The translations under genes and the position numbers were made by a program. A stretch of DNA of 10,945 nt from a virus. Where the stretch lies: the IMG/VR virus record IMGVR_UViG_3300035698_005843, positions 1-10,945 of that record; one strand, written 5' to 3'. Below are positions 1 through 10,945 of the stretch, piece after piece; position 1 is the stretch's first letter; each line of letters starts with the position of its first letter. The notes beneath the pieces were generated by a model, which made no database searches, was not told the DNA's origin, and saw only the letters and a program-made list of their open reading frames with translations.

Positions 1-127
1 CAGCCAGACCCGGAACCAGTTCCGGATCCGGCTCCGGTTCCAGATCCGGTTGAGGAAAAGCCGGATCTTATTAAGAAAGCAAACGAAGCCGCTGCCCGCC
101 TGGAAAAGGCTAATGTTGACATGGCAG
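1..127. repeat. Terminal direct repeat, copy 1 (identical to 10819-10945). Indicates circular closure or terminal redundancy of a 10,818-bp genome.
   Basis: Base-by-base comparison: 1-127 (cagccagacccgg...gttgacatggcag) equals the last 127 bases of the window. Confidence 0.95.
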
Positions 128-291
128 CATTGATCCAAAAACAGGAACAACTGCAAGTTGAAAAGACACTTGGAGGGGAAGCCCACGCAGGCACGCTACA
201 CAAGACCAAAGAGGAGAAAAATGTGGATAATGCTAAAGAGTTCCTTCGAGGCACTGGGTACGAAGATGAAATTTTTGAGCAAGAAGTGTAA
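1..291 (+). CDS. 3' part of the wrap-around ORF (full gene 10786..10818 + 1..291, 107 aa). Helical and charged. Putative scaffolding-like protein just upstream of the capsid genes.
   Basis: Open frame 1 from base 1 to the TAA at 289-291. Translation: ...ALIQKQEQLQVEKTLGGEAHAGTLHKTKEEKNVDNAKEFLRGTGYEDEIFEQEV. The position between the portal block and the capsid genes is typical for scaffold proteins. The function is inferred only. Confidence 0.45.
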   Translation, partial: QPDPEPVPDPAPVPDPVEEKPDLIKKANEAAARLEKANVDMAALIQKQEQLQVEKTLGGEAHAGTLHKTKEEKNVDNAKEFLRGTGYEDEIFEQEV

Positions 292-376
292 GAAATGCGG
301 CAAGCTCCGGAAATTCCTGGCAGGATCTGAACGAGACAAAAAACAGATCTGCGGGGAATGCTGGCACTGGAAATAA
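266..376 (+). CDS. 36-aa zinc-ribbon mini-protein (MKFLSKKCKKCGKLRKFLAGSERDKKQICGECWHWK), CxxC-x17-CxxC.
   Basis: Internal ATG of the 158..376 ORF. The upstream part of that ORF overlaps the scaffold-like frame and starts at a TTG. Paralogous in pattern to the C-terminus of 10568..10789. Confidence 0.5.
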   Translation: MKFLSKKCKKCGKLRKFLAGSERDKKQICGECWHWK

Positions 377-381
377 CAAGT

Positions 382-394
382 TTTAAATAGTAGG
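382..394 (+). promoter_or_regulatory. TTTAAATAGTAGG motif (TATA-box-like) in the 47-nt gap before the capsid gene block.
   Basis: An exact 13-nt copy also occurs at 6620-6632. Both sit in the only short intergenic gaps. TTTAAATA fits the archaeal TATA consensus (about TTTAWATA). Confidence 0.4.
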
Positions 395-423
395 CTACCC
401 AAAAAGTATCTTGGTGATTGAAT

Positions 424-825
424 ATGGCTAATGAAGCGGTTATAATCGAATTATTTAATGGTGGCAAACCTGCGGATTTCACATGCGCAGACGGCACAAC
501 TATTCTAAAGGGTACATTGCTGGAGCTTACTTCTCCACGCACAGTTATTGCAAATACAAATGATAATGCTCCTGTCGTCGGTATAGCAGCAGCTGAAAAA
601 GTTGCAAACGATGGCTCTGTCACAATTGCGGCATATCAAGATGGAGTTTTCGACATGCTGACTGATAGCGGAATAGATGCAGTCGGCGCATTGATGGCAA
701 ACTCAGCCACAGAAAATACGATACAGGGTGCAGATGCTACTGATGTAATACAGGGTTCAGTAATTGGTAAAGTTCTTGAAACCTGTACAAATGGTGGCAC
801 ACATGCGGTAAGGGTGAATCTCTAA
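424..825 (+). CDS. Putative head decoration protein (DUF2190-like pattern), 133 aa.
   Basis: ATG at 424, preceded by GGTGA at 413-417. The ORF-track start at 418 is a TTG. The protein is small and Gly/Val/Ala-rich, apparently beta-rich (..VVGIAAAEKVANDGSVTIAAYQDGVFDM..GALMAN..VIGKVLE..). It lies immediately upstream of the major capsid gene, the usual place for this family. Confidence 0.55.
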   Translation: MANEAVIIELFNGGKPADFTCADGTTILKGTLLELTSPRTVIANTNDNAPVVGIAAAEKVANDGSVTIAAYQDGVFDMLTDSGIDAVGALMANSATENTIQGADATDVIQGSVIGKVLETCTNGGTHAVRVNL

Positions 826-826
826 A

Positions 827-1675
827 ATGGCAGATTCCACAGGCGAAGCAGATTTAAGAGCAGAAAATTTTTCGAGTATTGTAAAAGGTTTTGCATTACA
901 AGAGTATAAGATGAAACAGCTGTGCATGATTGAAAGTTCAAGTGCATGGACTGAAACATACTATCAAGAAACAGCAGCCGATCTCACAGCAGGCGGTAAC
1001 AGAGATGTCGAAGGTGTATCAAGACTAGCTAATTTCCCCTACGGAGAAGTTACCTGGACAAAAGTTTCCGCTAGCAATATAAAGCATGCAATGGAAGGCG
1101 TACTGTCATGGGAAGATGTGAAAACCAATAACATTCCCATGATCGCACGGACATTACTAAGGATCGCACGCGCAGTTGCAAAGTCAATAGATGGCGTAAT
1201 TGCCGCTAAGATAGTTTCCGATGCTGGCAATACCCAAGCTGCAAATGCAACATGGGATAATGCTATCATAGCAAATCGGGATCCCATTCAGGACATCCTC
1301 AATGCGAAATCGCTCATTTCCATTGACAACTACAATCCTGATAAAAACTCCTTCCTTCTTGTCCACCCCACAGGGCTCTCGCATCTGCTCGGCAATCCCA
1401 ACATTCGGAATGCTGGTCAATTCTACACAGATGCAGTCACAAGAAACGGCAAAGTCGGTCAACTATTGGGCTTGACAGTCATAAGCTCAAATTCAGTTAC
1501 CGATGGTGGTGCTCAGATAGTAATCGCTAGAGAAGCCCTCACCTGGAAATCAGTTGTCGGCCTCACTACGAAAACTATTGAGGATCCAGGGATCAAATAT
1601 ACTATTCGATCCTTTGAAGTCGGCCAGATCCAGGTATCAAACCCGGATGCAATTTGCAAAATAACAGGTGTATAA
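827..1675 (+). CDS. Major capsid protein, HK97-fold type, 282 aa.
   Basis: Size, position after the scaffold-like and decoration-like genes, and sequence character typical of the Phage_capsid family (..NIPMIARTLLRIARAVAKSIDGVI.., ..FLLVHPTGLSHLL.., ..LLGLTVISSNSV..AQIVIAREAL..). Confidence 0.8.
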   Translation: MADSTGEADLRAENFSSIVKGFALQEYKMKQLCMIESSSAWTETYYQETAADLTAGGNRDVEGVSRLANFPYGEVTWTKVSASNIKHAMEGVLSWEDVKTNNIPMIARTLLRIARAVAKSIDGVIAAKIVSDAGNTQAANATWDNAIIANRDPIQDILNAKSLISIDNYNPDKNSFLLVHPTGLSHLLGNPNIRNAGQFYTDAVTRNGKVGQLLGLTVISSNSVTDGGAQIVIAREALTWKSVVGLTTKTIEDPGIKYTIRSFEVGQIQVSNPDAICKITGV

Positions 1676-1822
1676 ATGGCAAACGCACCACTTTTATACA
1701 ATGGGAGTGCAACAGATACAGCAGCTATCACCGCCGCACTGGGTACAAAAGACCCAGTAGATATTTTCATTATTCCCAATGCAGGCGGCCATGGAGTTGC
1801 AATATTCGAACAGGGGGCATAA
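1676..1822 (+). CDS. 48-aa hypothetical protein (MANAPLLYNGSATDTAAITAALGTKDPVDIFIIPNAGGHGVAIFEQGA).
   Basis: The ATG directly follows the capsid gene stop (TAAATG). The ORF fills an otherwise empty gap and is below the ORF-track length cut-off. Confidence 0.45.
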   Translation: MANAPLLYNGSATDTAAITAALGTKDPVDIFIIPNAGGHGVAIFEQGA

Positions 1823-1823
1823 A

Positions 1824-1964
1824 ATGAGCAAAGCAAATCGAAGATTAATGTATGACCAATTGGTAGCAGCTGATAAACTTTATCAGGATGATGGCGCACT
1901 CGTCAGAGAGTTCGGCATCCCCAAACCAAAATTGGCACAAAAGGTTGATAAAGTTGGCAAGTGA
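1824..1964 (+). CDS. 46-aa hypothetical protein (MSKANRRLMYDQLVAADKLYQDDGALVREFGIPKPKLAQKVDKVGK).
   Basis: Internal ATG of the 1779..1964 ORF, one base after the previous stop. The sequence looks like a natural protein. Confidence 0.5.
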   Translation: MSKANRRLMYDQLVAADKLYQDDGALVREFGIPKPKLAQKVDKVGK

Positions 1965-2097
1965 TGTAGTTCAATCCTTAACAGTGAAACAGTTAAGGAC
2001 TGGTACATATGTAAGTGGAGCCGCAACAGATAGTACAGGCTACATCATCATAAAAGATGAAGGTGGCACAGATAGAAAAGTTATGATTCAAGCGTGA
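1954..2097 (+). CDS. About 47-aa hypothetical protein, start uncertain (TTG at 1954 proposed; ORF envelope 1888..2097).
   Basis: The C-terminal part (..VVQSLTVKQLRTGTYVSGAATDSTGYIIIKDEGGTDRKVMIQA) is the only open frame here. The 1888 ATG would overlap 1824..1964 by 77 nt and gives an odd Ser-rich N-terminus. AAGG lies 9-10 nt upstream of the TTG at 1954. Confidence 0.35.
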   Translation: MASDVVQSLTVKQLRTGTYVSGAATDSTGYIIIKDEGGTDRKVMIQA

Positions 2098-2107
2098 GAA
2101 ACAGAAA

Positions 2108-2452
2108 ATGGCAGCAGATGTAATCAAAGCACTAGAATGTAAAGAATTAAAAATTAATTGTGATGGTTCTCAAATTGCATTTGATTGCAGAACCGAAGCA
2201 TCCTCAGGCCGAGCAGCATTTTTTTATTCTAATGTAAGCGGAGCTTCAGCTCAAGTTGTTTCAATACATCAAGATCATGTTACGGCAGCAATTCCAGTTT
2301 TACAACTCAGGCAAGATGATGAGAGCGAAGGATTCATTGCTTTTTCAGGTTCTGACCGTGGGGTCATAGCAGCTGCAACAGCTTCCTCAAAATCTGTTCG
2401 AGTAGAATTGGGTGGAGAAATATATAGATTAGCATTATATGTAGACGCGTAA
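2108..2452 (+). CDS. 114-aa hypothetical protein, probably structural.
   Basis: Clean ORF in the capsid/fibre gene block. No recognisable motif. Confidence 0.55.
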   Translation: MAADVIKALECKELKINCDGSQIAFDCRTEASSGRAAFFYSNVSGASAQVVSIHQDHVTAAIPVLQLRQDDESEGFIAFSGSDRGVIAAATASSKSVRVELGGEIYRLALYVDA

Positions 2453-2460
2453 TATACAAA

Positions 2461-3201
2461 ATGGTATCACTCAATAGTGCGGCAAAGCAGTTAAAAACAT
2501 CTTCTTCTAGACAGAAACCAACCGCACCAGGCGCGGCAGGTTACGACAATGCCCGAGAAAATATAGATACTCATATAAAGACTAAAGCGATTTCCTCAAA
2601 AGAACTGGAAATCGCCTCAATCAATGATGTTGTCAGGTTCGGTGGCGGATCTACATCATCTCAAGCCGCCACCGAGGTTTCCATTTGGACAGCTTCCGCT
2701 GTTAATACTACAACTGGAACCATCCGCCTTTATTGTGATAATACAGGCAATGTAGGAATAGGAAACAATGCAACCCCTACATTGATGTTAGATGTCAATC
2801 AGAAATCTGGCATATCCTCTACGGGTGCATTCTGTATAAAATTACTGAATGGCACCGGAGCAAACTCAGTTGAGGGCCAGCTTGCAGCAGTTTACACTGC
2901 CACCGCTGTCGATGAAGTATACAAAACAGCCGCAGCCAATGATTTGGGAGTAATTGGGGTAGTGCTAGAATCCGGTATTGCAGCTGGAGCACCAACCTGG
3001 ATAGTAGTCAGTGGACTAACAAATGTATTAATAGATTCAGGCGGATGCGTCAGGGGAGATAGACTAGTGAGCAGTGCAACAGCAGGCAGCGCAATTGTCA
3101 GCAACACACCAGCTGTTGCTGTACATTTCCAAGAAATAGGCCATGCAGTCGCCTCACAAATAGGCGCAGGCCTGGCCCGAACAGTAATTCATTTATTGTA
3201 A
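2461..3201 (+). CDS. Putative fibre or receptor-binding protein, 246 aa.
   Basis: Contains GNVGIGNNATPTLMLDV, which resembles the N-VGIG-T-P---LDV motif common in phage tail-fibre proteins. It is Ser/Thr/Ala/Gly-rich. The C-terminal about 100 aa shows a DUF2190-like pattern similar to the 424..825 product. Confidence 0.5.
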   Translation: MVSLNSAAKQLKTSSSRQKPTAPGAAGYDNARENIDTHIKTKAISSKELEIASINDVVRFGGGSTSSQAATEVSIWTASAVNTTTGTIRLYCDNTGNVGIGNNATPTLMLDVNQKSGISSTGAFCIKLLNGTGANSVEGQLAAVYTATAVDEVYKTAAANDLGVIGVVLESGIAAGAPTWIVVSGLTNVLIDSGGCVRGDRLVSSATAGSAIVSNTPAVAVHFQEIGHAVASQIGAGLARTVIHLL

Positions 3202-3209
3202 AATTCACA

Positions 3210-4004
3210 ATGGTTCAACAACGCAAAGTTGCAACGCGTAGTGGGGGTGTTGCAGAAAAAACAGAGAAAATCATAAATTGCATGCAGCATTATCCGGAAG
3301 GCTGCACGCCTCAAATGATTGCCCTCGCATCGTCGATAAATGTCAATACAGTCAAGTCTCTAATTCCCAAAATCCCGGAAATTAGGAAAATGATGCGCGG
3401 CTACTATAAAGTTGTTGAAAGGGGGGACGGTGCCTTTTATCCCCCACTGAAAAACTGGAACTTCCACAACTGCATTTTGTCATTCCAAACCCAAGAACCC
3501 CACAACAAACACCGCCTCGAATGTATCCAAGAGTACGGCCTGTTTTCCCTAAAATTCCAGGAAAACAAGCATGGTGTAGTGACGTGTCGTGTGTGTACCG
3601 AGTACCCCCTCAATGTGACGAGCATAGAATTGGTGTGTGTGTTGTTGAGGGAGATGTATTGGTATTATCTAACCCCCGACAAGATCACCATCCAAACCAT
3701 CGAATTCAATCATGACTACAGCAATCTCCGCCTTGACGGGCTTCAATGTGTTACAGTCGACTCCCTCGTTGAACAATTCAAAGTATACCAAAAACGCCAG
3801 GGGATGCGTATAGAGCACAAGACAAAGATACCTTTCGCCGCCGCTGACATTATCGAGATGCTCAAGAATAACCCGGAGAGCTTGGAGACAAACATGAAGC
3901 TCTCCGCCCAAAGACAAGAAATAGAGAAGCTGACACAGGCCACGACCAACAACACGGCGATCCTGTTGAAGCTAATAGATAAACAAACGGAGGCACTACA
4001 ATGA
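3210..4004 (+). CDS. 264-aa protein with an N-terminal winged-helix-like region and a C-terminal coiled coil. Candidate replication initiator or regulator.
   Basis: The N-terminus (..PEGCTPQMIALASSINVNTVKSLIPKIPEIRKMMRGYYKVV) looks like a wHTH. The C-terminus (..LETNMKLSAQRQEIEKLTQATTNNTAILLKLIDKQTEALQ) looks like a coiled coil. It is the largest non-structural ORF. The function is inferred. Confidence 0.6.
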   Translation: MVQQRKVATRSGGVAEKTEKIINCMQHYPEGCTPQMIALASSINVNTVKSLIPKIPEIRKMMRGYYKVVERGDGAFYPPLKNWNFHNCILSFQTQEPHNKHRLECIQEYGLFSLKFQENKHGVVTCRVCTEYPLNVTSIELVCVLLREMYWYYLTPDKITIQTIEFNHDYSNLRLDGLQCVTVDSLVEQFKVYQKRQGMRIEHKTKIPFAAADIIEMLKNNPESLETNMKLSAQRQEIEKLTQATTNNTAILLKLIDKQTEALQ

Positions 4005-4114
4005 AAAAAGCATTAATAGAACAATACTTTTTTGAATCTTACGGGGAATGGTATCCTAAGTACACAAATGATGCACCAGAATGGACAGTGTTTGTACAGA
4101 GGTTACTAAAATGA
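4001..4114 (+). CDS. 37-aa hypothetical protein (MKKALIEQYFFESYGEWYPKYTNDAPEWTVFVQRLLK).
   Basis: ATGA overlaps at both ends (4001-4004 and 4111-4114) link it exactly to its neighbours. Confidence 0.45.
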   Translation: MKKALIEQYFFESYGEWYPKYTNDAPEWTVFVQRLLK

Positions 4115-4281
4115 AACAAGACTGCAGCAATTGTATGCATGGCGATATAGCTAAAACAGATTTTCCATGTGATCGTTGCATAAGGAAACCAAACGAATTA
4201 GATAGATGGGATGCAAGAGAGAGATGCCAGGCATGTAATCAACCTAAGCCAGTGATTCAGGGTGTGGGGGTTATAGAATGA
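4111..4281 (+). CDS. 56-aa Cys-rich zinc-finger protein (three CxxC pairs).
   Basis: MKQDCSNCMHGDIAKTDFPCDRCIRKPNELDRWDARERCQACNQPKPVIQGVGVIE. The ATG at 4111 overlaps the upstream stop. The ORF-track start at 4081 would overlap the 37-aa ORF. Confidence 0.55.
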   Translation: MKQDCSNCMHGDIAKTDFPCDRCIRKPNELDRWDARERCQACNQPKPVIQGVGVIE

Positions 4282-4406
4282 TCCCCCACACGCAAGAGGA
4301 ATATGACGAGATGCAGGAGGCAGACATAACATTCAAACAACTACAAAATGACAGTCGAAAAGCTACAAAGAGTGCTATGGCGCCTGAGGCGCTACAGCAT
4401 AGGTAA
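4278..4406 (+). CDS. Possible 42-aa ORF (MIPHTQEEYDEMQEADITFKQLQND...). Weak call.
   Basis: ATGA overlap with the previous stop, but the last 59 nt overlap 4348..4566. It fills an otherwise unexplained 66-nt gap. Confidence 0.25.
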   Translation: MIPHTQEEYDEMQEADITFKQLQNDSRKATKSAMAPEALQHR

Positions 4407-4566
4407 CAACCATCCATATAATAGCGACCTAAAGAAAGCGATTATGTATGAATGCGGGACAAGCCCGCAAACATTCAGAGATAATCGTAAGGCGCTACGC
4501 GCCCTTGGCTGGATCAAACCTTATAATCGCATAAGGATAACATTGACAGACGAGGATCTTCAGTGA
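4348..4566 (+). CDS. 72-aa helix-turn-helix DNA-binding protein.
   Basis: ..LKKAIMYECGTSPQTFRDNRKALRALGWIKPY.. has the look of an HTH recognition unit. It is the last gene before the non-coding island. Confidence 0.55.
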   Translation: MTVEKLQRVLWRLRRYSIGNNHPYNSDLKKAIMYECGTSPQTFRDNRKALRALGWIKPYNRIRITLTDEDLQ

Positions 4567-4575
4567 CAAAACAGC

Positions 4576-4581
4576 TATAAT
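4576..4581 (+). promoter_or_regulatory. Perfect TATAAT hexamer 9 nt after the stop of the HTH gene. Possible start signal for transcription of the non-coding island.
   Basis: gcTATAATgcacc. There is no properly spaced -35: TTGACA at 4543-4548 is 27 nt away and GTGACA at 4563-4568 is 7 nt away. Confidence 0.25.
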
Positions 4582-4589
4582 GCACCAGG

Positions 4590-5000
4590 CCGCCCGCCGT
4601 GAAAGACGGCGTCCGAGTCCTAAGATCGATTACGATCTTACACCTCAGGTCATAACGATGACCGATGGTGCCGGACATTTCGTCCAGATGGGCACCTCAG
4701 GACGAAATTGGAGCGGAAAAGCTAGAACGTTGGGGATGCGACTACGACGCACACTAAGCAGGCGACTACAGCTTAGTAACCCCAACAACCCAGCTTTACC
4801 AAAGCTCCATGCGGACGCCGTCTTTCACGGGATCTCAACTGTGCATCTTACTGTTCGCCTGTGGGCTCACAGCCCCGGTCGGCTGACGCCTCCCTCCCCG
4901 GCGCGGCTCCTAACGTCGCCGCCCTGCGGGCGGTATCCATGTCGTTGTGTATGTATAGCGGATGTGAGGTTGATTGCGTGGGTGGTGTGTGTACCCCTTG
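4590..5000 (+). ncRNA. Candidate structured non-coding RNA or leader of unknown class. The alternative is a DNA-level pac/cos/ori element. The boundaries are approximate.
   Basis: It is the only long non-coding stretch and is GC-rich. Many nested perfect helices are present (listed in the findings). The 161-aa ORF over it has no SD and a low-complexity Arg/Pro/Ser-rich translation. Both minus-strand frames are open across its 3' half, which fits GC-rich non-coding sequence. The strand was chosen from gene orientation and the upstream TATAAT only. Confidence 0.45.
4597..4830. repeat. Perfect 19-bp inverted repeat (arms 4597-4615 and 4812-4830) enclosing 196 nt.
   Basis: CCGTGAAAGACGGCGTCCG versus CGGACGCCGTCTTTCACGG. 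All 19 positions were checked as Watson-Crick complements. Confidence 0.95.
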
Positions 5001-5022
5001 AAAGATTTTTATCAGAAAAATT

Positions 5023-5028
5023 AGGAGG
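5023..5028 (+). promoter_or_regulatory. Strong Shine-Dalgarno (AGGAGG) for the 5035 ORF.
   Basis: AGGAGG lies 6 nt upstream of the ATG at 5035. Confidence 0.7.
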
Positions 5029-5034
5029 AAAACA

Positions 5035-5205
5035 ATGGAACCAACAAGAGACGACTGGGTATTGACCCGGGAAGAAGCAAGCAGCCAGGAAATGCAGCAT
5101 AGAATCGCGATGGAATGCGCCCAGGCTGTATTTGAAATGTGCGAATCGAAGATCAAGAGATTCCCCAAACCAAAAGACGACGATGACCCAGGAGACACCG
5201 TTTAA
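5035..5205 (+). CDS. 56-aa acidic protein upstream of, and overlapping, the terminase start. Possible small packaging subunit or regulator.
   Basis: It has the best SD in the window. MEPTRDDWVLTREEASSQEMQHRIAMECAQAVFEMCESKIKRFPKPKDDDDPGDTV. It ends at the TAA at 5203-5205, 23 nt past the proposed terL ATG. It is below the ORF-track length cut-off. Confidence 0.55.
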   Translation: MEPTRDDWVLTREEASSQEMQHRIAMECAQAVFEMCESKIKRFPKPKDDDDPGDTV

Positions 5206-6442
5206 GTGGGACAAATGGCAGCGGGAACTACTGGAAACTGATGGCGACATCACGATCCGGTCCGGGCGCCAGGTAGGAAAGAGTGAAGTCATTAGCGAGA
5301 AGGCTGTACAGTTCGCCCTCAAAAATGACAACACCACCATAATGATAATAGCAGCTAGCCAGCGGCAATCTAGCTTGTTATTTGAGAAGGTTCGGGCTAA
5401 GTTGGACATGGAAGGCGACATCTACGCCGACCAACCAACCCTAACCAAGATTGACTTACTGAATGGCAGCAGGATCTACAGTCTACCAGCTGGCCGTACT
5501 GGTTACTTTATCAGGGGCTTCACAATTGACTTGCTCATTTGTGACGAAGCCGCATATATCCCTGAGGAAGTCTGGAAAGCGGTAATTCCGATGATCGCCG
5601 TCAGTAAGAAAACTAGGGGCATGGGTGACATAATTTTACTAAGCACTCCGTTTGGCAAAGGCGGCTATTACTACAGCTCTTTCACTGATCCTGATTTCAA
5701 ATCATTTCATGTCAGCAGCGAAGATTGCCGGAGGATCCCAAAGGCTTTCTTACATAAAGAAAAACGCCGACTGACAAAAGCCGAATACAGGCAGGAATAT
5801 CTTGGAGAGTTCACTGACGAATGGAATCAATTCTTCCCGACTATACTTATCAAGAAGTGTATGACATTCATTGAATGGGATAAAGACAAAGACGGCCTAC
5901 CCGGTGCCGCGTACTACCTGGGCGAAGATATAGCAAGATACGGAGGGGATGATAATGGATTTGTGTTTGTGGAAATGGCGAAGAAACATCTCAAAGTCGT
6001 CAAAGTCGCGGAATCTAATAGGGTCAGTACAACTGATACTATCGGTAGGACAGTGGAGTATGACAAATACTGGCAATTTAAGAGAATATTCATTGATGAT
6101 GGCGGTTTGGGCGGATCAGTCACAGATGTATTACAGGAAAAGCTTGGCCGTCGTGTTATTGGATTAAACAACTCAAGCAAACGCCTCAAGATAGAAGGCG
6201 AAGAAAAAAAGAAAGGAATACTAAAGGAGGATATGTACAGCAATGCCTTAATGCTGATGGAAACTGACAAAATCGAGATCATAAGCGATCTGCGACTGCT
6301 CAGGAGCCTAAAAAGCATGACATTTGAATACACTACCTACGGCAATATTAAGATCTTTGGACCCGACAGCCACCTCGCGGAGGCTTTCGTGCGCGCATGC
6401 TGGTGTATCAAAGACAAAGGCCTCGATCTGTACATATATTAA
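5183..6442 (+). CDS. terL: Terminase large subunit (ATPase + RNase H-like nuclease), 419 aa.
   Basis: Walker A-like SGRQVGKSE. Walker B LLICDEAAYI. STPFGKGG motif. Acidic nuclease motifs GEDIARYGGDDNGF, IFIDDGGLGG and DSHLAEAF. The start is set at the ATG at 5183; the ORF-track start at 5132 is a TTG inside the 56-aa ORF. Confidence 0.9.
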   Translation: MTQETPFKWDKWQRELLETDGDITIRSGRQVGKSEVISEKAVQFALKNDNTTIMIIAASQRQSSLLFEKVRAKLDMEGDIYADQPTLTKIDLLNGSRIYSLPAGRTGYFIRGFTIDLLICDEAAYIPEEVWKAVIPMIAVSKKTRGMGDIILLSTPFGKGGYYYSSFTDPDFKSFHVSSEDCRRIPKAFLHKEKRRLTKAEYRQEYLGEFTDEWNQFFPTILIKKCMTFIEWDKDKDGLPGAAYYLGEDIARYGGDDNGFVFVEMAKKHLKVVKVAESNRVSTTDTIGRTVEYDKYWQFKRIFIDDGGLGGSVTDVLQEKLGRRVIGLNNSSKRLKIEGEEKKKGILKEDMYSNALMLMETDKIEIISDLRLLRSLKSMTFEYTTYGNIKIFGPDSHLAEAFVRACWCIKDKGLDLYIY

Positions 6443-6447
6443 AGAAA

Positions 6448-6624
6448 ATGAGCGGAATCAGATATAATGTAAAACAACGGCAAATAGTGCGGCGAATCAA
6501 CGATCTAAAGCAATTACAGCAAAAAGCCTACAATAGATGGCATTTCTACGACATAAAGATAGGCGCACTCAAATCTTTAGTTGAAAGGGAGGGGTTTGAA
6601 CAACGCATAAATGACAATATTTAA
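6448..6624 (+). CDS. 58-aa basic hypothetical protein (MSGIRYNVKQRQIVRRINDLKQLQQKAYNRWHFYDIKIGALKSLVEREGFEQRINDNI).
   Basis: The internal ATG of ORF 6397..6624 lies 5 nt after the terL stop. The longer version would overlap terL. Confidence 0.5.
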   Translation: MSGIRYNVKQRQIVRRINDLKQLQQKAYNRWHFYDIKIGALKSLVEREGFEQRINDNI

Positions 6625-6632
6625 ATAGTAGG
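6620..6632 (+). promoter_or_regulatory. Second exact copy of TTTAAATAGTAGG, 18 nt upstream of the ATG at 6651.
   Basis: Identical to 382-394. It spans the stop codon of the 58-aa ORF and the 26-nt gap. Confidence 0.4.
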
Positions 6633-6650
6633 ATTGGTAGAAAAAGGAGA

Positions 6651-7022
6651 ATGGCAAATGCAGGACAATTCGCACAAGATGCAGATATACTGCTTAGAGT
6701 TGGAACTAACGCCAGCGCTACCGTCAAAGCCGCTGGCTGGTTCGACACTATAATTCTGGATGTAGAAGCTATCGTAAACGTCCTGACAAGAACAGATTGG
6801 AGCACATTGGACTCAGCAACCACGCTAAACACCACAGTTCGCGGGATCCTGATTGATACAGGCGCCAGCCTTGCAGCAATACAGGGCATAATGTGGGATA
6901 TGTCCGGCTTCACAAGCCGAACAGAAGCCGAGGACATGGTGAATGTCCTCAGGGATACGGCATTAAGAAACATGTCAATTCTTAGAGATATGAAGCAACA
7001 GACCTTCATAAAGGAGGCATAA
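6651..7022 (+). CDS. 123-aa, mostly helical protein. Possible head-tail adaptor or head completion protein.
   Basis: Size, helical character and location at the head of the portal-containing block. There is no diagnostic motif, so the function is a guess. Confidence 0.6.
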   Translation: MANAGQFAQDADILLRVGTNASATVKAAGWFDTIILDVEAIVNVLTRTDWSTLDSATTLNTTVRGILIDTGASLAAIQGIMWDMSGFTSRTEAEDMVNVLRDTALRNMSILRDMKQQTFIKEA

Positions 7023-7477
7023 TGGTATTTGAGCATGATTATGAAAACTACCCTGAATTAACCAATAAGCAACTGCAGGAATTCCATTTCAGTTCGCCAC
7101 ACCCCCAAATTGTGGCGGACTTTTCTGCAACTGTCATTAAGGTTCATGACGGCGACACGATCACCCTAAGGACAGACTTCCGCGATTTCGATTTCCCTCT
7201 CAGATTTCTAGATATTGACGCCCCTGAAATGAATGCAGGCGGTGAAGCAGCCAGGGATTGGCTCAAATCCAAAATTCTCGGTCATGAGATCTCCGTTTCA
7301 ATTGACACAGACAACAGAGTCGGAAGGTATGGCAGGCTGCTAGGTAGAATATTCTTTAATGGAATCAACCTCGGCATGGAAATGTTATACCTGGGGCTTG
7401 TCAAGCCTTTCGGCATAAAAAAGGAGGGCCAAATACCTGATCTAGGTCAGATATTCATGATAAAACAATGGCTTTAA
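7022..7477 (+). CDS. Staphylococcal-nuclease-like (thermonuclease/SNase) protein, 151 aa.
   Basis: VIKVHDGDTITLRTD...PLRFLDIDAPEM...GGEAARDWLKSKILGHEISV...RVGRYGRLLGRIFFNGINLGMEMLYLGLVKPF matches the SNase pattern (DGDT ... R-hydrophobic-x-G-I-D-A-P-E ... Y-G-R-x-L ... G-L-A/V). Confidence 0.85.
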   Translation: MVFEHDYENYPELTNKQLQEFHFSSPHPQIVADFSATVIKVHDGDTITLRTDFRDFDFPLRFLDIDAPEMNAGGEAARDWLKSKILGHEISVSIDTDNRVGRYGRLLGRIFFNGINLGMEMLYLGLVKPFGIKKEGQIPDLGQIFMIKQWL

Positions 7478-7851
7478 ACTTCGGCTCGTCAGGATTGTTC
7501 CCAAGCACAGGGCTGCTTAATGATGATGGGTTGCTTAAAGAAAGATGGGATCAGGAAGGGAGCTCCCTCAAAGAATGGACTACAGTTGATTCCGCAGGAT
7601 CTCACAATCTATATACAGTACCCGCTAAAAAGAAAGTATTCATTACACAATTAACTTGTTCATCAAGTGTAGCGCGGTTTTGTTCATTGCAAAGGGGTAC
7701 AACGATTATAGTGACATTGCAATTAATTGGCCAAGATTCACATAGTTATACTTTTGGTTCGCCAGTAGAGTTCACAGCTGGCCAAATAGTTAATGTCAAT
7801 CAGCAAGCTGATCTGACATCATTTGTAGCAGGATGGGAAGAAAATGCATAA
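7468..7851 (+). CDS. 127-aa hypothetical protein, probably beta-rich and a virion component.
   Basis: Clean ORF overlapping its neighbours by 10 and 8 nt. No motif recognised (..LYTVPAKKKVFITQLTCSS..). Confidence 0.55.
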   Translation: MALNFGSSGLFPSTGLLNDDGLLKERWDQEGSSLKEWTTVDSAGSHNLYTVPAKKKVFITQLTCSSSVARFCSLQRGTTIIVTLQLIGQDSHSYTFGSPVEFTAGQIVNVNQQADLTSFVAGWEENA

Positions 7852-8053
7852 ATATATTGATGTTAAAAAGGTTGATGGCAAAATCATATTTGAATACGAA
7901 TTCAATAATGAGCCGGAGTTTTTCCATTTCGATATAGATACATTCACCCATGATAAACTAGCTTATGCCCTGGGTGCAAAGATGAAACTATCAGCCGATG
8001 ATATCGTGCTGACAGAAAAATTCAATCAAATAAAAACAGCGGTGACCAAATAA
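7844..8053 (+). CDS. 69-aa hypothetical protein.
   Basis: Clean ORF coupled to the portal gene by a TAATG overlap. Confidence 0.5.
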   Translation: MHKYIDVKKVDGKIIFEYEFNNEPEFFHFDIDTFTHDKLAYALGAKMKLSADDIVLTEKFNQIKTAVTK

Positions 8054-9144
8054 TGCCAGATCTAAGAATAGATGCAGCAGTAGAAGCAGGCGTAAGAAAT
8101 GTCATTACTGATTATAGCGTCGACAGCCAGGACACGGAAGGCGCAGGCACAGTAAAAGAAACTACATACCAAAATGTCAACTGGTCGCAGGATCTCGGCT
8201 ACTATAAATCCATCCCGGAATTTAAGACTGCAGTTGATGCAAAAGCGACCTGGACAATGGGTGCAGGATTTGAATCTGATGAAGTCACCACAATGTTACT
8301 TGGTAACATTAAAGGCAACGGAAAAGATTCTTTCAATACAATTCTAAAAAATATGATCAAAGTCAAGACCATTAGCCAAGATTCCTTCGCTGAAGTTATC
8401 CGTGACAAAGATAATGTTCTTGTCAACATAAAACCCCTCGATCCTGCATCTATGGTTATAGTGCAGGATCAACGCGGGAGAATCAAACGCTACGAACAAG
8501 TCAGCAAGACCAAAATTCCCAACCTAAAATTTAAACCAGAATCAATATTCCACCTCAGCCATGAGAGAATAGCTGACGAGATCCACGGAGTCAGGATCAT
8601 TGAATCATTGAAATGGCTGATCCTGGCAAGAAATGAAGCTATGTCGGACTGGAAACGTGTTCTGCATAGAAACATAGATCCGCTTTGGATCATCCACATG
8701 GATACAGACGATACTACAGAGATTGCAGGATTCAAAAAGAAATATGATTCCGCCCGGGCCAATGGCGAAAACATGTATGTCCCTAAAGGCGTAGTTGTTC
8801 CCGAACAGGTCACAACTGCCGCTAATGCTACACTCAACCCACTTAACTGGATCAATCAGCTGAATGATTATTTTTTCCAGGCTGTCAATGTTCCACAGAT
8901 CATAATCGGCAATGCTAAAGAATTCACAGACGCCAGCGGAAAAATAGTCTATCTTTCCTATGAGCAAAGCGTAAAGGCCGAACAGTTGTACATTGAGGAG
9001 CAGGTACTTGGTCAGCTAAATCTTGAGATTGCGCTTACATTCCCCGCAAGCTTGCAAAATGAATTAATCAGCGACAGAGATCAGGAATCAGATCTTCAGG
9101 CCTCACAACCTGATGATACAACAGCAGAATTGGAGGGAGCCTAA
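8053..9144 (+). CDS. Portal protein, 363 aa.
   Basis: Size, acidic C-terminal tail (..DRDQESDLQASQPDDTTAELEGA) and general resemblance to HK97-family portals (..IFHLSHERIADEIHGVRIIESL..NIDPLWIIH..MYVPKGV..). A genome with a TerL and an HK97-type capsid protein needs a portal, and this is the only candidate. Confidence 0.7.
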   Translation: MPDLRIDAAVEAGVRNVITDYSVDSQDTEGAGTVKETTYQNVNWSQDLGYYKSIPEFKTAVDAKATWTMGAGFESDEVTTMLLGNIKGNGKDSFNTILKNMIKVKTISQDSFAEVIRDKDNVLVNIKPLDPASMVIVQDQRGRIKRYEQVSKTKIPNLKFKPESIFHLSHERIADEIHGVRIIESLKWLILARNEAMSDWKRVLHRNIDPLWIIHMDTDDTTEIAGFKKKYDSARANGENMYVPKGVVVPEQVTTAANATLNPLNWINQLNDYFFQAVNVPQIIIGNAKEFTDASGKIVYLSYEQSVKAEQLYIEEQVLGQLNLEIALTFPASLQNELISDRDQESDLQASQPDDTTAELEGA

Positions 9145-9335
9145 TGCAAGTAAAAATCAACAATGATAGGAAAGTCGACATTAAGATCATACTTTTCGGA
9201 CTAGCATGCTTAACAACTTTGGAAATAGTTGCACTGTGTAATGGCATCAATGGAACAATGTTCACAATGGTAATTGCAATCATTGCCGGAATAACTGGCT
9301 TTGTAGTTCCAACACCAAATCTAATTAAGAAATAA
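9144..9335 (+). CDS. 63-aa membrane protein with two predicted hydrophobic helices. Holin-like or virion membrane-active protein.
   Basis: IKIILFGLACLTTLEIVALC and MFTMVIAIIAGITGFVV are hydrophobic segments. TAATG overlaps at both ends. Confidence 0.5.
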   Translation: MQVKINNDRKVDIKIILFGLACLTTLEIVALCNGINGTMFTMVIAIIAGITGFVVPTPNLIKK

Positions 9336-10555
9336 TGGTAGTCGTAAATCGCGGTAATTTGAGGCCAAGTATAAGGCGGAAACTCCCCGGCGGAGAAAAA
9401 AGAACAACAAGTGCAATTAGGCGTAGCTCTAAATCTAGCACGAAAACAAGCTCACGATCCACCCCAAGAACAAAAGTGACAGATCACCGCCAACCTCAGG
9501 AGATTGCAGCAACGCGAACGCCTATAAATAGGAGTACTGTCAGAGCAGCCACCGAACAGGAAAAGTTCGCTGGTACTCCCCAGGGCCAGGTAATCAAAGG
9601 ATTCCAGCAGGGATTGACAGGCAATTTTCCTACTGAGGATTTACAAACATTACCTCTGTCCTATCAGTTTGGTCTTATAGGTGGGGCTCTCACATTACCT
9701 TTGTCATTTTCAGCACAGTCTGCATCAGGTATGTCAGCTTTAGGTCAATCCACAAGAATTGGGGCCCCTAATACAGTGGATTTTCTAGGTCAGGTTTCTG
9801 GCCCTAGTAGATCAATTCCAAGAATAGCCCTCAATACGAAAACCGCAAAATTGACAAATGATATATTAAAAAAAACATTTAGTACCGGAGCATTGGCAGC
9901 AGCTGGTGGTTGGGCAGGAGCAGTATTTTTAGGCAATTGGGGACAAGCAGAAGCACCTGAACCATTAGGAATAGCATTGAATACAATTTTGATACCTGCA
10001 GCAAGAGATTCTGGTAACTGGACTGCAGTTGATGAAGCCATTGAAATGCAAAATGAAATAAATAATTTACCCTGGTGGGAACAAGTTGGCCTTTGGTCAC
10101 CGATCAGTCCAATTATAGGAATCCCAAATAAAATTAAGGGATCTATTGCCGGCACAAAAGTGGTTTCGAAAGCAATTGAGGATTTAAAGTCACAACAAGC
10201 TACAGGCGAATCAGACGATGATAAATGGACAAGAATAAGAGCAGAACAGGCTGCTCAAGAAAAGGCAGCTGTTGATTATTATAATCAACAGAGAAAAATC
10301 CAGTTTGATTATGAACAAGCATCCCGACAAGCAGCAGCTACAGCCAGAGCAGCTGATGATGCTTCAGAACGTAGACAAGAAATAAAAGCTATGCAAGAAG
10401 ATGCAGAATATTGGGCAGAGCAACGAGAAAAAGAAAGAAAACGAGAAGCGGAAGATAGGCTAGCAATAGCAGAATTTTGGATTGCATATCGTAAAAGAAT
10501 GCAAGAAATAGCAGACGACAACAGGCCGTCTAATTTAAACTTCGGCCTATTGTAG
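9335..10555 (+). CDS. 406-aa tripartite protein: basic Ser/Thr/Arg/Lys-rich N-terminus, Gly/Ala-rich hydrophobic middle, and a long charged coiled-coil C-terminus. Candidate internal, ejection or tail-associated protein.
   Basis: Composition read from the translation: RRKLPGGEKRTTSAIRRSSKSSTKTSSRSTPRTK; TGALAAAGGWAGAVFLGNWG; RAEQAAQEKAA...EQREKERKREAEDRLA. The function is inferred. Confidence 0.6.
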   Translation: MVVVNRGNLRPSIRRKLPGGEKRTTSAIRRSSKSSTKTSSRSTPRTKVTDHRQPQEIAATRTPINRSTVRAATEQEKFAGTPQGQVIKGFQQGLTGNFPTEDLQTLPLSYQFGLIGGALTLPLSFSAQSASGMSALGQSTRIGAPNTVDFLGQVSGPSRSIPRIALNTKTAKLTNDILKKTFSTGALAAAGGWAGAVFLGNWGQAEAPEPLGIALNTILIPAARDSGNWTAVDEAIEMQNEINNLPWWEQVGLWSPISPIIGIPNKIKGSIAGTKVVSKAIEDLKSQQATGESDDDKWTRIRAEQAAQEKAAVDYYNQQRKIQFDYEQASRQAAATARAADDASERRQEIKAMQEDAEYWAEQREKERKREAEDRLAIAEFWIAYRKRMQEIADDNRPSNLNFGLL

Positions 10556-10567
10556 GAGGAGAGAAAA

Positions 10568-10789
10568 ATGAGCGAATTAACCAAGTACCAGACTATAGAA
10601 TTACTTAAAGAATTGATAGACCGAGAAGTCGGCGCACCAGTTTGTGAAACTGTTGTAGATGAAGAAGTGCCAGCCGATGGCCAGTATGCAATCAAGTGCT
10701 CAAAATGCGGCAAAGATTCAACAGTACCATTCAAACCACGCGACACAAACCATAATCTACTGTGCCGCGATTGTTGGAGGACAAAATGA
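10568..10789 (+). CDS. 73-aa protein with a C-terminal zinc ribbon (CSKC-x18-CRDCW).
   Basis: Good SD (GGAGGAG at 10555-10561). ..AIKCSKCGKDSTVPFKPRDTNHNLLCRDCWRTK. The stop overlaps the start of the scaffold-like ORF (ATGA). Confidence 0.6.
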   Translation: MSELTKYQTIELLKELIDREVGAPVCETVVDEEVPADGQYAIKCSKCGKDSTVPFKPRDTNHNLLCRDCWRTK

Positions 10790-10945
10790 CAGAAGAAGAC
10801 GAACAGGAAGAACCAACGCAGCCAGACCCGGAACCAGTTCCGGATCCGGCTCCGGTTCCAGATCCGGTTGAGGAAAAGCCGGATCTTATTAAGAAAGCAA
10901 ACGAAGCCGCTGCCCGCCTGGAAAAGGCTAATGTTGACATGGCAG
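10786..10945 (+). CDS. 5' part of the wrap-around ORF (continues at position 1). Acidic, Pro-rich N-terminus (MTEEDEQEEPTQPDPEPVPDPAPVPDPVEEKPDLIKKANEAAARLEKANVDMA...). Putative scaffolding-like protein.
   Basis: The ATG at 10786 overlaps the upstream stop (ATGA). The frame is continuous with frame 1 at window position 1, because 10819-10786=33. Confidence 0.6.
   Translation, partial: MTEEDEQEEPTQPDPEPVPDPAPVPDPVEEKPDLIKKANEAAARLEKANVDMA
10819..10945. repeat. Terminal direct repeat, copy 2 (identical to 1-127).
   Basis: Same comparison as for copy 1. It lies inside the ORF that starts at 10786. Confidence 0.95.

Follow-up and report, generated by a model that had tools for sequence, protein, structure and literature searches.

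What is a perfect 19-bp inverted repeat doing in the genome of a very small tailed virus? The repeat lies in IMG/VR virus record IMGVR_UViG_3300035698_005843, of which positions 1 to 10,945 were analyzed (10,945 nt, hereafter the window). It closes a 234-nt domain (4597-4830) that lies between the gene for a 72-aa winged helix-turn-helix (HTH)-like protein (HTH72) and the terminase genes. The domain is one module of a ~470-nt composite region that is conserved across a virus family. This region, 4567-5034, is probably the replication and/or packaging control region of the genome. Our leading but tentative reading, held with limited confidence, is that it is an origin or single-strand-initiation region, in which hairpins form on unwound DNA, chiefly on the minus strand. 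Support comes from a fold that is statistically real and extremely stable, from the family-wide retention of a hairpin region at this position, and from the Watson-Crick-only stems and the strand-specific DNA-type loops.

An earlier note on this DNA had reported the two arms, and they are indeed exact reverse complements (19/19 positions complementary, with 196 nt between them):

4597-4615: left arm, closing helix of the 5′ domain, CCGTGAAAGACGGCGTCCG
4812-4830: right arm of the inverted repeat, CGGACGCCGTCTTTCACGG

At 19 bp this is the longest perfect inverted repeat of the genome, the runner-up having 13 bp. A chance origin was thought very unlikely, and the control agrees: among 100 whole-genome shuffles that preserved dinucleotide content, the longest perfect inverted repeat, whatever its spacing, reached at most 16 bp (mean 12.7 bp). 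When the non-coding element alone was shuffled 60 times, long-range stems did not exceed 10 bp. The local arm hairpin GCCGT-GAAAG-ACGGC, also pointed out before, is present at 4596-4610. No target-site duplication was found beside the repeat (flanks GCCCG and GATCT), and the 19-mer arm was not found elsewhere in IMG/VR (2.9 million contigs).

The proposal of a compact multi-branch domain was borne out by folding. The 19-bp closing helix and three branches are predicted to form a four-way junction, with the following branches:

4617-4676: branch 1, a GTCC/GGAC helix bearing two hairpins (TAAGATCG/CGATCTTA; CACC/GGTG with GGTCAT/ATGACC)
4677-4708: branch 2, the hairpin ATTTCGTCC/GGACGAAAT
4709-4809: branch 3, a Y-shaped arm (TGGAGC/GCTCCA, AAAGCT/AGCTTT, GTTGGGG/CCCCAAC, TGCG/CGCA, ACTAAGC/GCTTAGT)

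As plus-strand RNA the domain has a folding energy of -117.8 kcal/mol (z = -12.6), and as DNA it gives z = -15.2 on the plus strand and -14.3 on the minus strand. The same fold is predicted for RNA and for DNA, whichever strand is used. All 88 predicted pairs of the plus strand are Watson-Crick (88/88), with zero G-U. Watson-Crick-only stems with equal folding of the two strands are expected of DNA hairpins or of a sense/antisense RNA pair; for a single-sense RNA they are unusual. A classical cruciform was rejected, as arms separated by 196 nt would not extrude from a DNA duplex; for the fold to form, the strand must be single, whether as RNA or as unwound DNA. Within the domain, two loops of the Y-shaped arm share the sequence CGACTAC (4741-4747 and 4764-4770). 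The direct repeat CACCTCAGG occurs twice (4643-4651 and 4691-4699) and has alternative pairings with GGTG/GGTGCC.

Is this structure under selection? We compared HTH-to-terminase intervals, 25 of them distinct and complete and 9 partial, and every collected interval starts with a 300-450 nt GC-enriched string of hairpins. By blastn, the 5′ part of the region, including the 234-nt domain, has no detectable sequence similarity to any relative, and the 5′ domain is unalignable with that of the closest relative, in which the HTH protein is 75% identical. Among 20 elements, eight possess a perfect long-range stem of their own, 11-20 bp long and with a span of 149-268 nt, which 0-1 of 60 shuffles reached; the remaining 12 have hairpins only. 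The closing helices are uninterrupted (19 bp in the window, 19 bp in L010 and 20 bp in L033). Branch number and topology differ between relatives.

In three elements that can be aligned (L009, L033 and L037), the differences are exclusively compensatory Watson-Crick changes, which affect the closing stem as well as at least three of the inner hairpins. These include GCTCGTT/AACGAGC to GCTCATT/AATGAGC, GGGCGTCG/CGACGCCC to GGGCGTTG/CAACGCCC, and TTAGCAC/GTGCTAA to TTACGCTC/GAGCGTAA. In the same set the closing stem GTGGGTACACGC is swapped for GGGTAAGCACGCAACGCTGC, with perfect pairing in both. The earlier note had argued that compensatory changes in relatives would favor RNA or a cruciform, and retention of the exact sequence a protein-binding site. 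Long-range pairing and hairpins are kept by compensation while the arm sequences are entirely different, which points to the former branch, in the form of RNA or a cruciform/single-strand structure. Given the strictly compensatory changes and the unrelated arms, selection appears to act on pairing, not on sequence; the evidence for compensation comes from one alignable sub-lineage and is carried to the window by positional analogy. In two lineages represented by many contigs, the element is identical or nearly so between contigs. TerL-anchored scans of IMG/VR and Joint Genome Institute (JGI) metagenomes for close relatives gave a best identity of 73% in the terminase large subunit (TerL). Neither an exact-protein look-up of the HTH protein of the window nor a blastn search of the region against GenBank phages returned a match.

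The strand-specific features lie downstream of the 234-nt domain, where two hairpins stand out:

4851-4872, minus strand: family-conserved hairpin ctgt-TCGCC-TGTG-GGCTC-acag (ctgtTCGCCTGTGGGCTCacag)
4919-4933, minus strand: hairpin CCGCCC-TGC-GGGCGG, with a C-GCA-G triloop on the minus strand, the only such hairpin of the window

On the minus strand the first of these reads CTGT-GA-GCC-CACA-GGC-GA-ACAG, with tandem G-A mismatches, and is a variant with a 4-nt loop. The general unit, (variable 3-7-bp stem)-TCGC-N3-8-GCTC-(stem′), was found with covarying flanks in ~18 of 29 elements and in further ones (relatives with it include L005, L031, L037, L040, L046, L047, L058, L081, L084, L088, L090 and L093). 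There are one to five copies per element, with tandem duplications in L058, L084 and L114. On the minus strand the unit becomes stem-GA-GC-GNA-GC-GA-stem, that is, tandem G-A around a GCGNAGC mini-hairpin, and this reading of the hairpin is the stabler one in 17/17 cases with RNA parameters and in 16/17 with DNA parameters. Mini-hairpins of the GCGNAGC/C-GNA-G type were accordingly found on the minus strand of relatives, for example GAGC-GAA-GCGA in L084, L088 and L093. Among the 71 distinct triloop hairpins (stem of at least 4 bp) of the family elements, 20 have TNC on the plus strand, equal to GNA on the minus strand, as against two with GNA on the plus strand; 16 of those 20 are closed by C-G. 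As DNA, such mini-hairpins are extraordinarily stable, with a melting temperature of 76.5 C vs 39 C for r(GCGAAAGC), and they are known at the G4, St-1 and alpha3 complementary-strand origins, in RSF1010 ssiA and in the N4 early promoters (PMC13037366).

The alternative that these loops are UUCG tetraloops of plus-strand RNA was rejected: they are triloops (TTC/TCC/TGC/TAC), and their stems extend in the triloop register. Family-wide, the minimum-free-energy folds show no G-U asymmetry between the strands (208 pairs on the plus and 190 on the minus strand), and the long stems carry 17 G.T vs 22 A.C mismatches. The variation in unit copy number and the tandem duplications would be more typical of DNA repeats, like iterons or origin repeats. 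The distant relative L058 (~2290-2520; element 300-530) has three tandem 74-nt repeats followed by three copies of CTCTCTTCCCTATGTCTC; each 74-nt repeat consists of a TCGC/GCTC hairpin and two GC hairpins, in an iteron-like layout.

A hairpin of this type reaches well beyond the family. The exact 17-mer GGCTCGCTTCGCTCGCC is present in at least 120 IMG/VR contigs, and among 80 retrieved loci (L098-L177) six are relatives of the window virus. At the non-relative loci, the 17-mer is an isolated GC island in sequence of 28-45% GC, with no conserved flanks, and it is sometimes multi-copy on both strands of unrelated contigs. Crude open reading frame (ORF) calls place the purine reading of the 17-mer on the sense strand of its co-directional neighbors by 21:4, opposite to the window virus family. 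Rfam searches around the hairpin in eight unrelated contigs gave no match to the hairpin, and no literature match was found by sequence. In seven loci, some from giant-virus bins of metagenome-assembled genomes (MAGs), AGGGGG(G)TATGGGGGA stands 10-40 nt after the 17-mer, together with a palindrome, GGGGGAACC..GGTTCCCCC (L099, L117, L144, L150, L169, L170 and L175), an arrangement that looks like a separate composite repeat. The unrelated contig L100 has an OTKONC RNA at 2406-2568 (RF03053, 154 bits, over the gathering score), ~1.4 kb from the hairpin. This contig has 28% GC and very few standard-code ORFs, and may use an alternative genetic code.

How might the region work? The stretch 4567-5034 is the sole large non-coding stretch of the genome. 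A 161-aa ORF (4580-5065) that spans it was rejected as a gene; it has no homologue in any relative and the stretch is therefore non-coding. Its GC content rises to 0.58-0.62, vs 0.44 for the genome. Since the genome has no recognizable replication genes and no other large non-coding stretch, the cis sites for replication and packaging should be here. The inverted repeat would close the 5′ module of this single control region. Its parts would be (i) a variable multi-hairpin domain, often with a long perfect closing stem; (ii) a GC-rich hairpin array that includes the conserved stem-TCGC-N-GCTC-stem unit; and (iii) a promoter-like conserved block that may serve the terminase operon:

4956-5012, plus strand: conserved block TAGCGGATGTGA ... 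GT-rich ... GAAAGATTTTTAT, from a gap-free alignment of 23 elements with fixed spacing

Only these last ~60 nt of the region are conserved in sequence, and they are the sole part with blastn similarity to relatives. The block consensus is TA(A/G)CGA(A/G)T-T-GA, a GT-rich stretch, (T)CCAG, and an A/G-rich stretch with ATTTTTAT / GATTTTTAT, and the block ends 22 nt 5′ of the ATG at 5035. Judging from its sequence, it is probably an upstream site and a promoter of the terminase operon that resembles the archaeal BRE/TATA type. Parts (i) and (ii), for their part, would work as folded single-stranded nucleic acid. In the origin reading, that strand would be DNA, not RNA, and the process would be replication initiation: DNA hairpins would emerge when the stretch unwinds in replication and provide a region for priming or replisome loading.

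The closest known systems are the single-strand-initiation (ssi) signals and complementary-strand origins (G4/St-1/alpha3, RSF1010 ssiA/ssiB). These too are non-coding, strand-specific hairpins with GCGNAGC/C-GNA-G, in which the outer sequence is free and the stems covary (PMC13037366). They differ in being 40-150 nt long, in having known primases (DnaG, RepB') and in their demonstrated passage through single-stranded DNA, whereas here the region is ~400 nt long, the virus is a double-stranded DNA tailed archaeal virus with no primase or Rep identified, and the 234-nt domain is without the GNA motif. The single-strand origins (sso) of rolling-circle plasmids and the Ff intergenic region, which joins replication and packaging signals, are also alike: they are 200-500-nt non-coding regions with several imperfect hairpins, orientation-specific, and with structure kept over sequence. 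Unlike the region in the window, they need an HUH Rep and a single-stranded DNA intermediate, neither of which was found here, and the conserved ssoA motifs, which belong to recognition by bacterial RNA polymerase, are not meaningfully matched. Extensive strand-specific intrastrand pairing in a non-coding region, as in sso and ssi, was found here. Scans of the window proteins against Pfam and PHROGs revealed no Rep family; the sole candidate, a 264-aa protein, is without a convincing structural match.

Several points weigh against an origin or single-strand-initiation region. No GNA triloop lies inside 4597-4830, and the strand-specific motifs are 3′ of that domain. Nearest-neighbor DNA energies favor the minus strand only slightly, and no origin shows up in the GC skew. 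Among the window proteins we identified neither a replication initiator nor an HUH Rep or primase, and a single-stranded stage of the virus is presumed. Read-through transcription of the upstream operon would in any case produce the fold as RNA, and the orientation of the 17-nt hairpin in unrelated contigs, which tracks gene direction, could point to a transcript-level role.

The strongest rival, which we consider nearly as likely, is a structured non-coding RNA. It could be the long 3′ untranslated region of the upstream operon, with a role in stabilization, processing or termination and an end at the T5 run (5006-5010), or an antisense minus-strand RNA; possible variants are a ColE1-type primer/antisense control pair or a packaging RNA. 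The very low folding energies as RNA, the GC enrichment within an AT-richer genome and the compensatory changes all fit this idea. There is no T-run from the HTH stop codon to 5006, so a read-through RNA would include the domain, and the T5 run itself could, from its sequence, end upstream transcripts. As minus-strand RNA the domain gains six G-U pairs and ~10 kcal/mol, and the tandem G-A and GNA of the minus strand are good RNA motifs as well. The 21:4 orientation of the purine reading in unrelated viruses agrees with a transcript, and the equal folding of both strands by Watson-Crick-only stems fits a sense/antisense pair. Against RNA, branch topology and hairpin number are not conserved, unlike those of catalytic or scaffold RNAs, and there is no family-wide G-U asymmetry. 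Moreover, neither strand has a conserved promoter ahead of the domain, and the promoter-like block is directed away from it. Tandem duplications and a varying number of copies also fit DNA repeats better.

Searches for known RNAs likewise speak against this rival. Rfam 15, which includes phi29 packaging RNA (pRNA), RNase P, signal recognition particle RNA, transfer-messenger RNA (tmRNA) and introns, gave no match in 4567-5034 at E<=1, and at permissive thresholds nothing relevant appeared in nine relatives. A tRNA/tmRNA scan found none. The earlier note had considered processing by a double-strand-specific RNase, but a site of the RNase III type is unlikely given the probable archaeal host, as archaea are, to our knowledge, generally without RNase III. 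The closing stem is also without the bulge-helix-bulge of archaeal rRNA-type processing stems. A kink-turn or K-loop, as an L7Ae site, was rejected because the minus-strand hairpin has symmetric tandem G-A flanking a 2-3-bp helix and no bulge.

Two known RNA systems are worth comparing. ColE1-type origins (RNA II/RNA I) are alike in having several hundred nt of multiple stem-loops by the origin, folding on both strands, fast evolution and G/C runs; they are unlike in that here no convergent promoters were identified, the host context is archaeal and there is no sign of RNase H-type primer processing. The phi29 pRNA is also a structured element of RNA size (~120-230 nt) next to packaging genes in a very small tailed-virus genome. 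However, there is no Rfam pRNA match, and the window virus has a conventional terminase large subunit, whereas phi29 has its own type of ATPase and protein-primed DNA. A phi29-type packaging RNA was rejected, as the architecture is not kept among relatives and the long closing stem occurs in only 8/20.

A bolder version of the RNA idea, which we regard as unlikely, is that an undescribed class of fast-evolving structured RNA, most likely made from the minus strand, controls replication or packaging, alone or as a sense/antisense pair, in a family that includes the smallest archaeal tailed viruses known. The core hairpin GGC-GA-GC-GAA-GC-GA-GCC would then be a pan-viral recognition element of at least 100 unrelated viral genomes. 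The mini-hairpin, with its tandem G-A and GNA triloop on one strand, is present in at least 120 unrelated viral contigs and has neither an Rfam model nor a sequence match in the literature searched. If it is a true signal for a primase, polymerase or RNA-binding protein, it would be of general interest.

There is also a slim chance that the region is a packaging site (pac/cos) for the terminase, where hairpins or repeated CGCTC units would help in binding or bending. Its position directly 5′ of the genes for a small helical protein and TerL recalls cosB/Nu1 of lambda or the pac of terS regions, there are repeats of short CGCTC-type motifs, and many metagenomic contigs of relatives end inside the region. 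However, terminases act on duplex DNA, which leaves the covarying stems unexplained, and the variable 5′ domain cannot be the sequence-specific site of a conserved protein; only 4956-5012 could. The contig ends are scattered in homopolymer and hairpin tracts, as coverage drop-outs give, and their ascertainment is biased to the anchor genes.

The starts or ends of these contigs are scattered over the hairpin region and fall in C/G homopolymers and strong hairpins (L007, L008, L011, L027, L029, L032, L039, L044, L046, L049, L082, L084, L087, L092 and L095). As evidence of a physical terminus the ends were judged unreliable given the scatter, the sequence context and the anchor-gene bias, and they are probably coverage drop-outs. 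The contigs L001, L006 and L009 begin at residues 29-33 of the HTH gene.

Equally slim is the chance of selfish or neutral palindromic DNA. In this scenario an element like a repetitive extragenic palindrome or bacterial interspersed mosaic element (REP/BIME), a palindrome-associated transposable element (PATE) or a miniature inverted-repeat transposable element (MITE) would occupy the only insertion-tolerant site, and template switching would keep the 19-bp repeat perfect. The hairpin unit is multi-copy and widespread on both strands in unrelated viral contigs, the 5′ domain turns over rapidly and tandem duplications are seen; quasi-palindrome correction is expected to yield perfect arms. Yet all relatives retain 300-450 nt, ~4% of a minimal genome, and the internal hairpins show point-wise compensatory substitutions. 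There is no transposase or recombinase gene. REP/BIME and MITE repeats are likewise short GC-rich imperfect palindromes with a conserved core, variable stems and tandem arrays, the core occurring in unrelated genomes; unlike them, the region here has a fixed position family-wide, and its 234-nt unit is single-copy. A MITE as such was rejected despite the inverted repeats; with no target duplication, no IMG/VR occurrence of the arm, no recombinase and no inverted version of the segment, the MITE and inverton readings are both weak.

Last, and very improbable, is an HTH operator, as the earlier note had proposed, in the form of two inverted sites, or else an invertible phase-variable segment: the repeat adjoins the HTH gene, and its length and spacer are within the known inverton range, but the arms are not an HTH operator because the HTH recognition region is almost invariant (17 homologues) while the arms are unrelated in all relatives, the inverton fails for want of a recombinase gene and of any flipped inner segment (alignable relatives and near-identical contigs are all in one orientation), and neither idea explains the internal covarying hairpins. 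If there is a conserved HTH72 target, it would lie in the block 4956-5012 or in the TCGC/GCTC hairpin.

At ~11-12 kb, these viruses, which are linked to DPANN and other archaea, count among the smallest of tailed viruses; they encode an HK97-type capsid, a portal and a terminase and have no recognizable replication genes. With ~4% of the genome given to a hairpin region under structural selection, this region offers the best way into the question of how viruses this minimal enlist the replication and packaging machinery of the host. If it is merely a terminator or spacer, the finding is ordinary.

The genes that flank the region are all on the plus strand, as are all genes of the genome:

4348-4566, plus strand: gene of the 72-aa winged-HTH-like protein HTH72 (ORF; weak Crp-like HTH match; homologues directly 5′ of the element in relatives)
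5035-5205, plus strand: gene of a 56-aa conserved helical protein (Shine-Dalgarno AGGAGG at 5023-5028), which precedes and overlaps the terminase large subunit gene
5132-6442, plus strand: TerL gene (Pfam Terminase_6N, 2.5e-12; PHROG 2, 2e-44)

The recognition region of HTH72 reads AIMYECGT..T..NNRKAL..LGWIK. The 56-aa protein has a homologue in L015 and similar small ORFs occur in other relatives; it is without any family match. Other products of the genome include a cement-like protein, an HK97-type major capsid protein and a Cys-rich protein and, on the far side of the non-coding stretch, an SNase-like protein and a portal. Beside capsid, portal and terminase, a few small DNA-binding proteins are encoded, and Pfam and PHROGs scans of the window proteins gave no recognizable polymerase, primase, helicase, Rep, integrase, recombinase or transposase.

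The nearest TerL from an isolate is that of the haloarchaeal virus HGTV-1 (32% identity). Close TerL homologues come from contigs that binning placed with MAGs of Pacearchaeota and other archaea, and remoter ones were found in Bathyarchaeia and Nitrososphaeria genomes. The relatives are contigs of 11-12.5 kb from sediments, saline lakes and seawater. From these sequences, the window virus is probably a member of a family of very small tailed viruses with an archaeal, DPANN-linked host, an assignment that is tentative as it comes via MAG binning. A literature search on small DPANN tailed viruses gave nothing specific.

The 264-aa conserved protein (3210-4004) has 58 homologues, every one on an 11-12-kb contig. 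It has an N-terminal winged HTH, an alpha/beta domain and a long C-terminal coiled coil, with invariant residues that include FHN, YQK and EHK. Its AlphaFold2 model has a confidence (pLDDT) of 69, and Foldseek against PDB and BFVD gave only weak matches resembling TATA-binding protein. Sought as an initiator or Rep with PDB profiles and by a Pfam scan of 21 homologues, it yielded the N-terminal winged HTH only. The protein is a candidate initiator or regulator.

Bases 1-127 of the window are identical to 10819-10945. This direct repeat of 127 nt is therefore the overlap of a circular assembly, and the unique genome is 10,818 bp. The overlap sits in low-complexity coding sequence rich in Gly, Ser and Pro, and contains nested palindromes (CCGGAACCAGTTCCGGATCCGG...). 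Three small Cys-rich proteins of the zinc-ribbon or treble-clef type are encoded at 10568-10789, 158-376 and 4081-4281, and two of them have a common C-terminal motif, CxxC...CxxCW.

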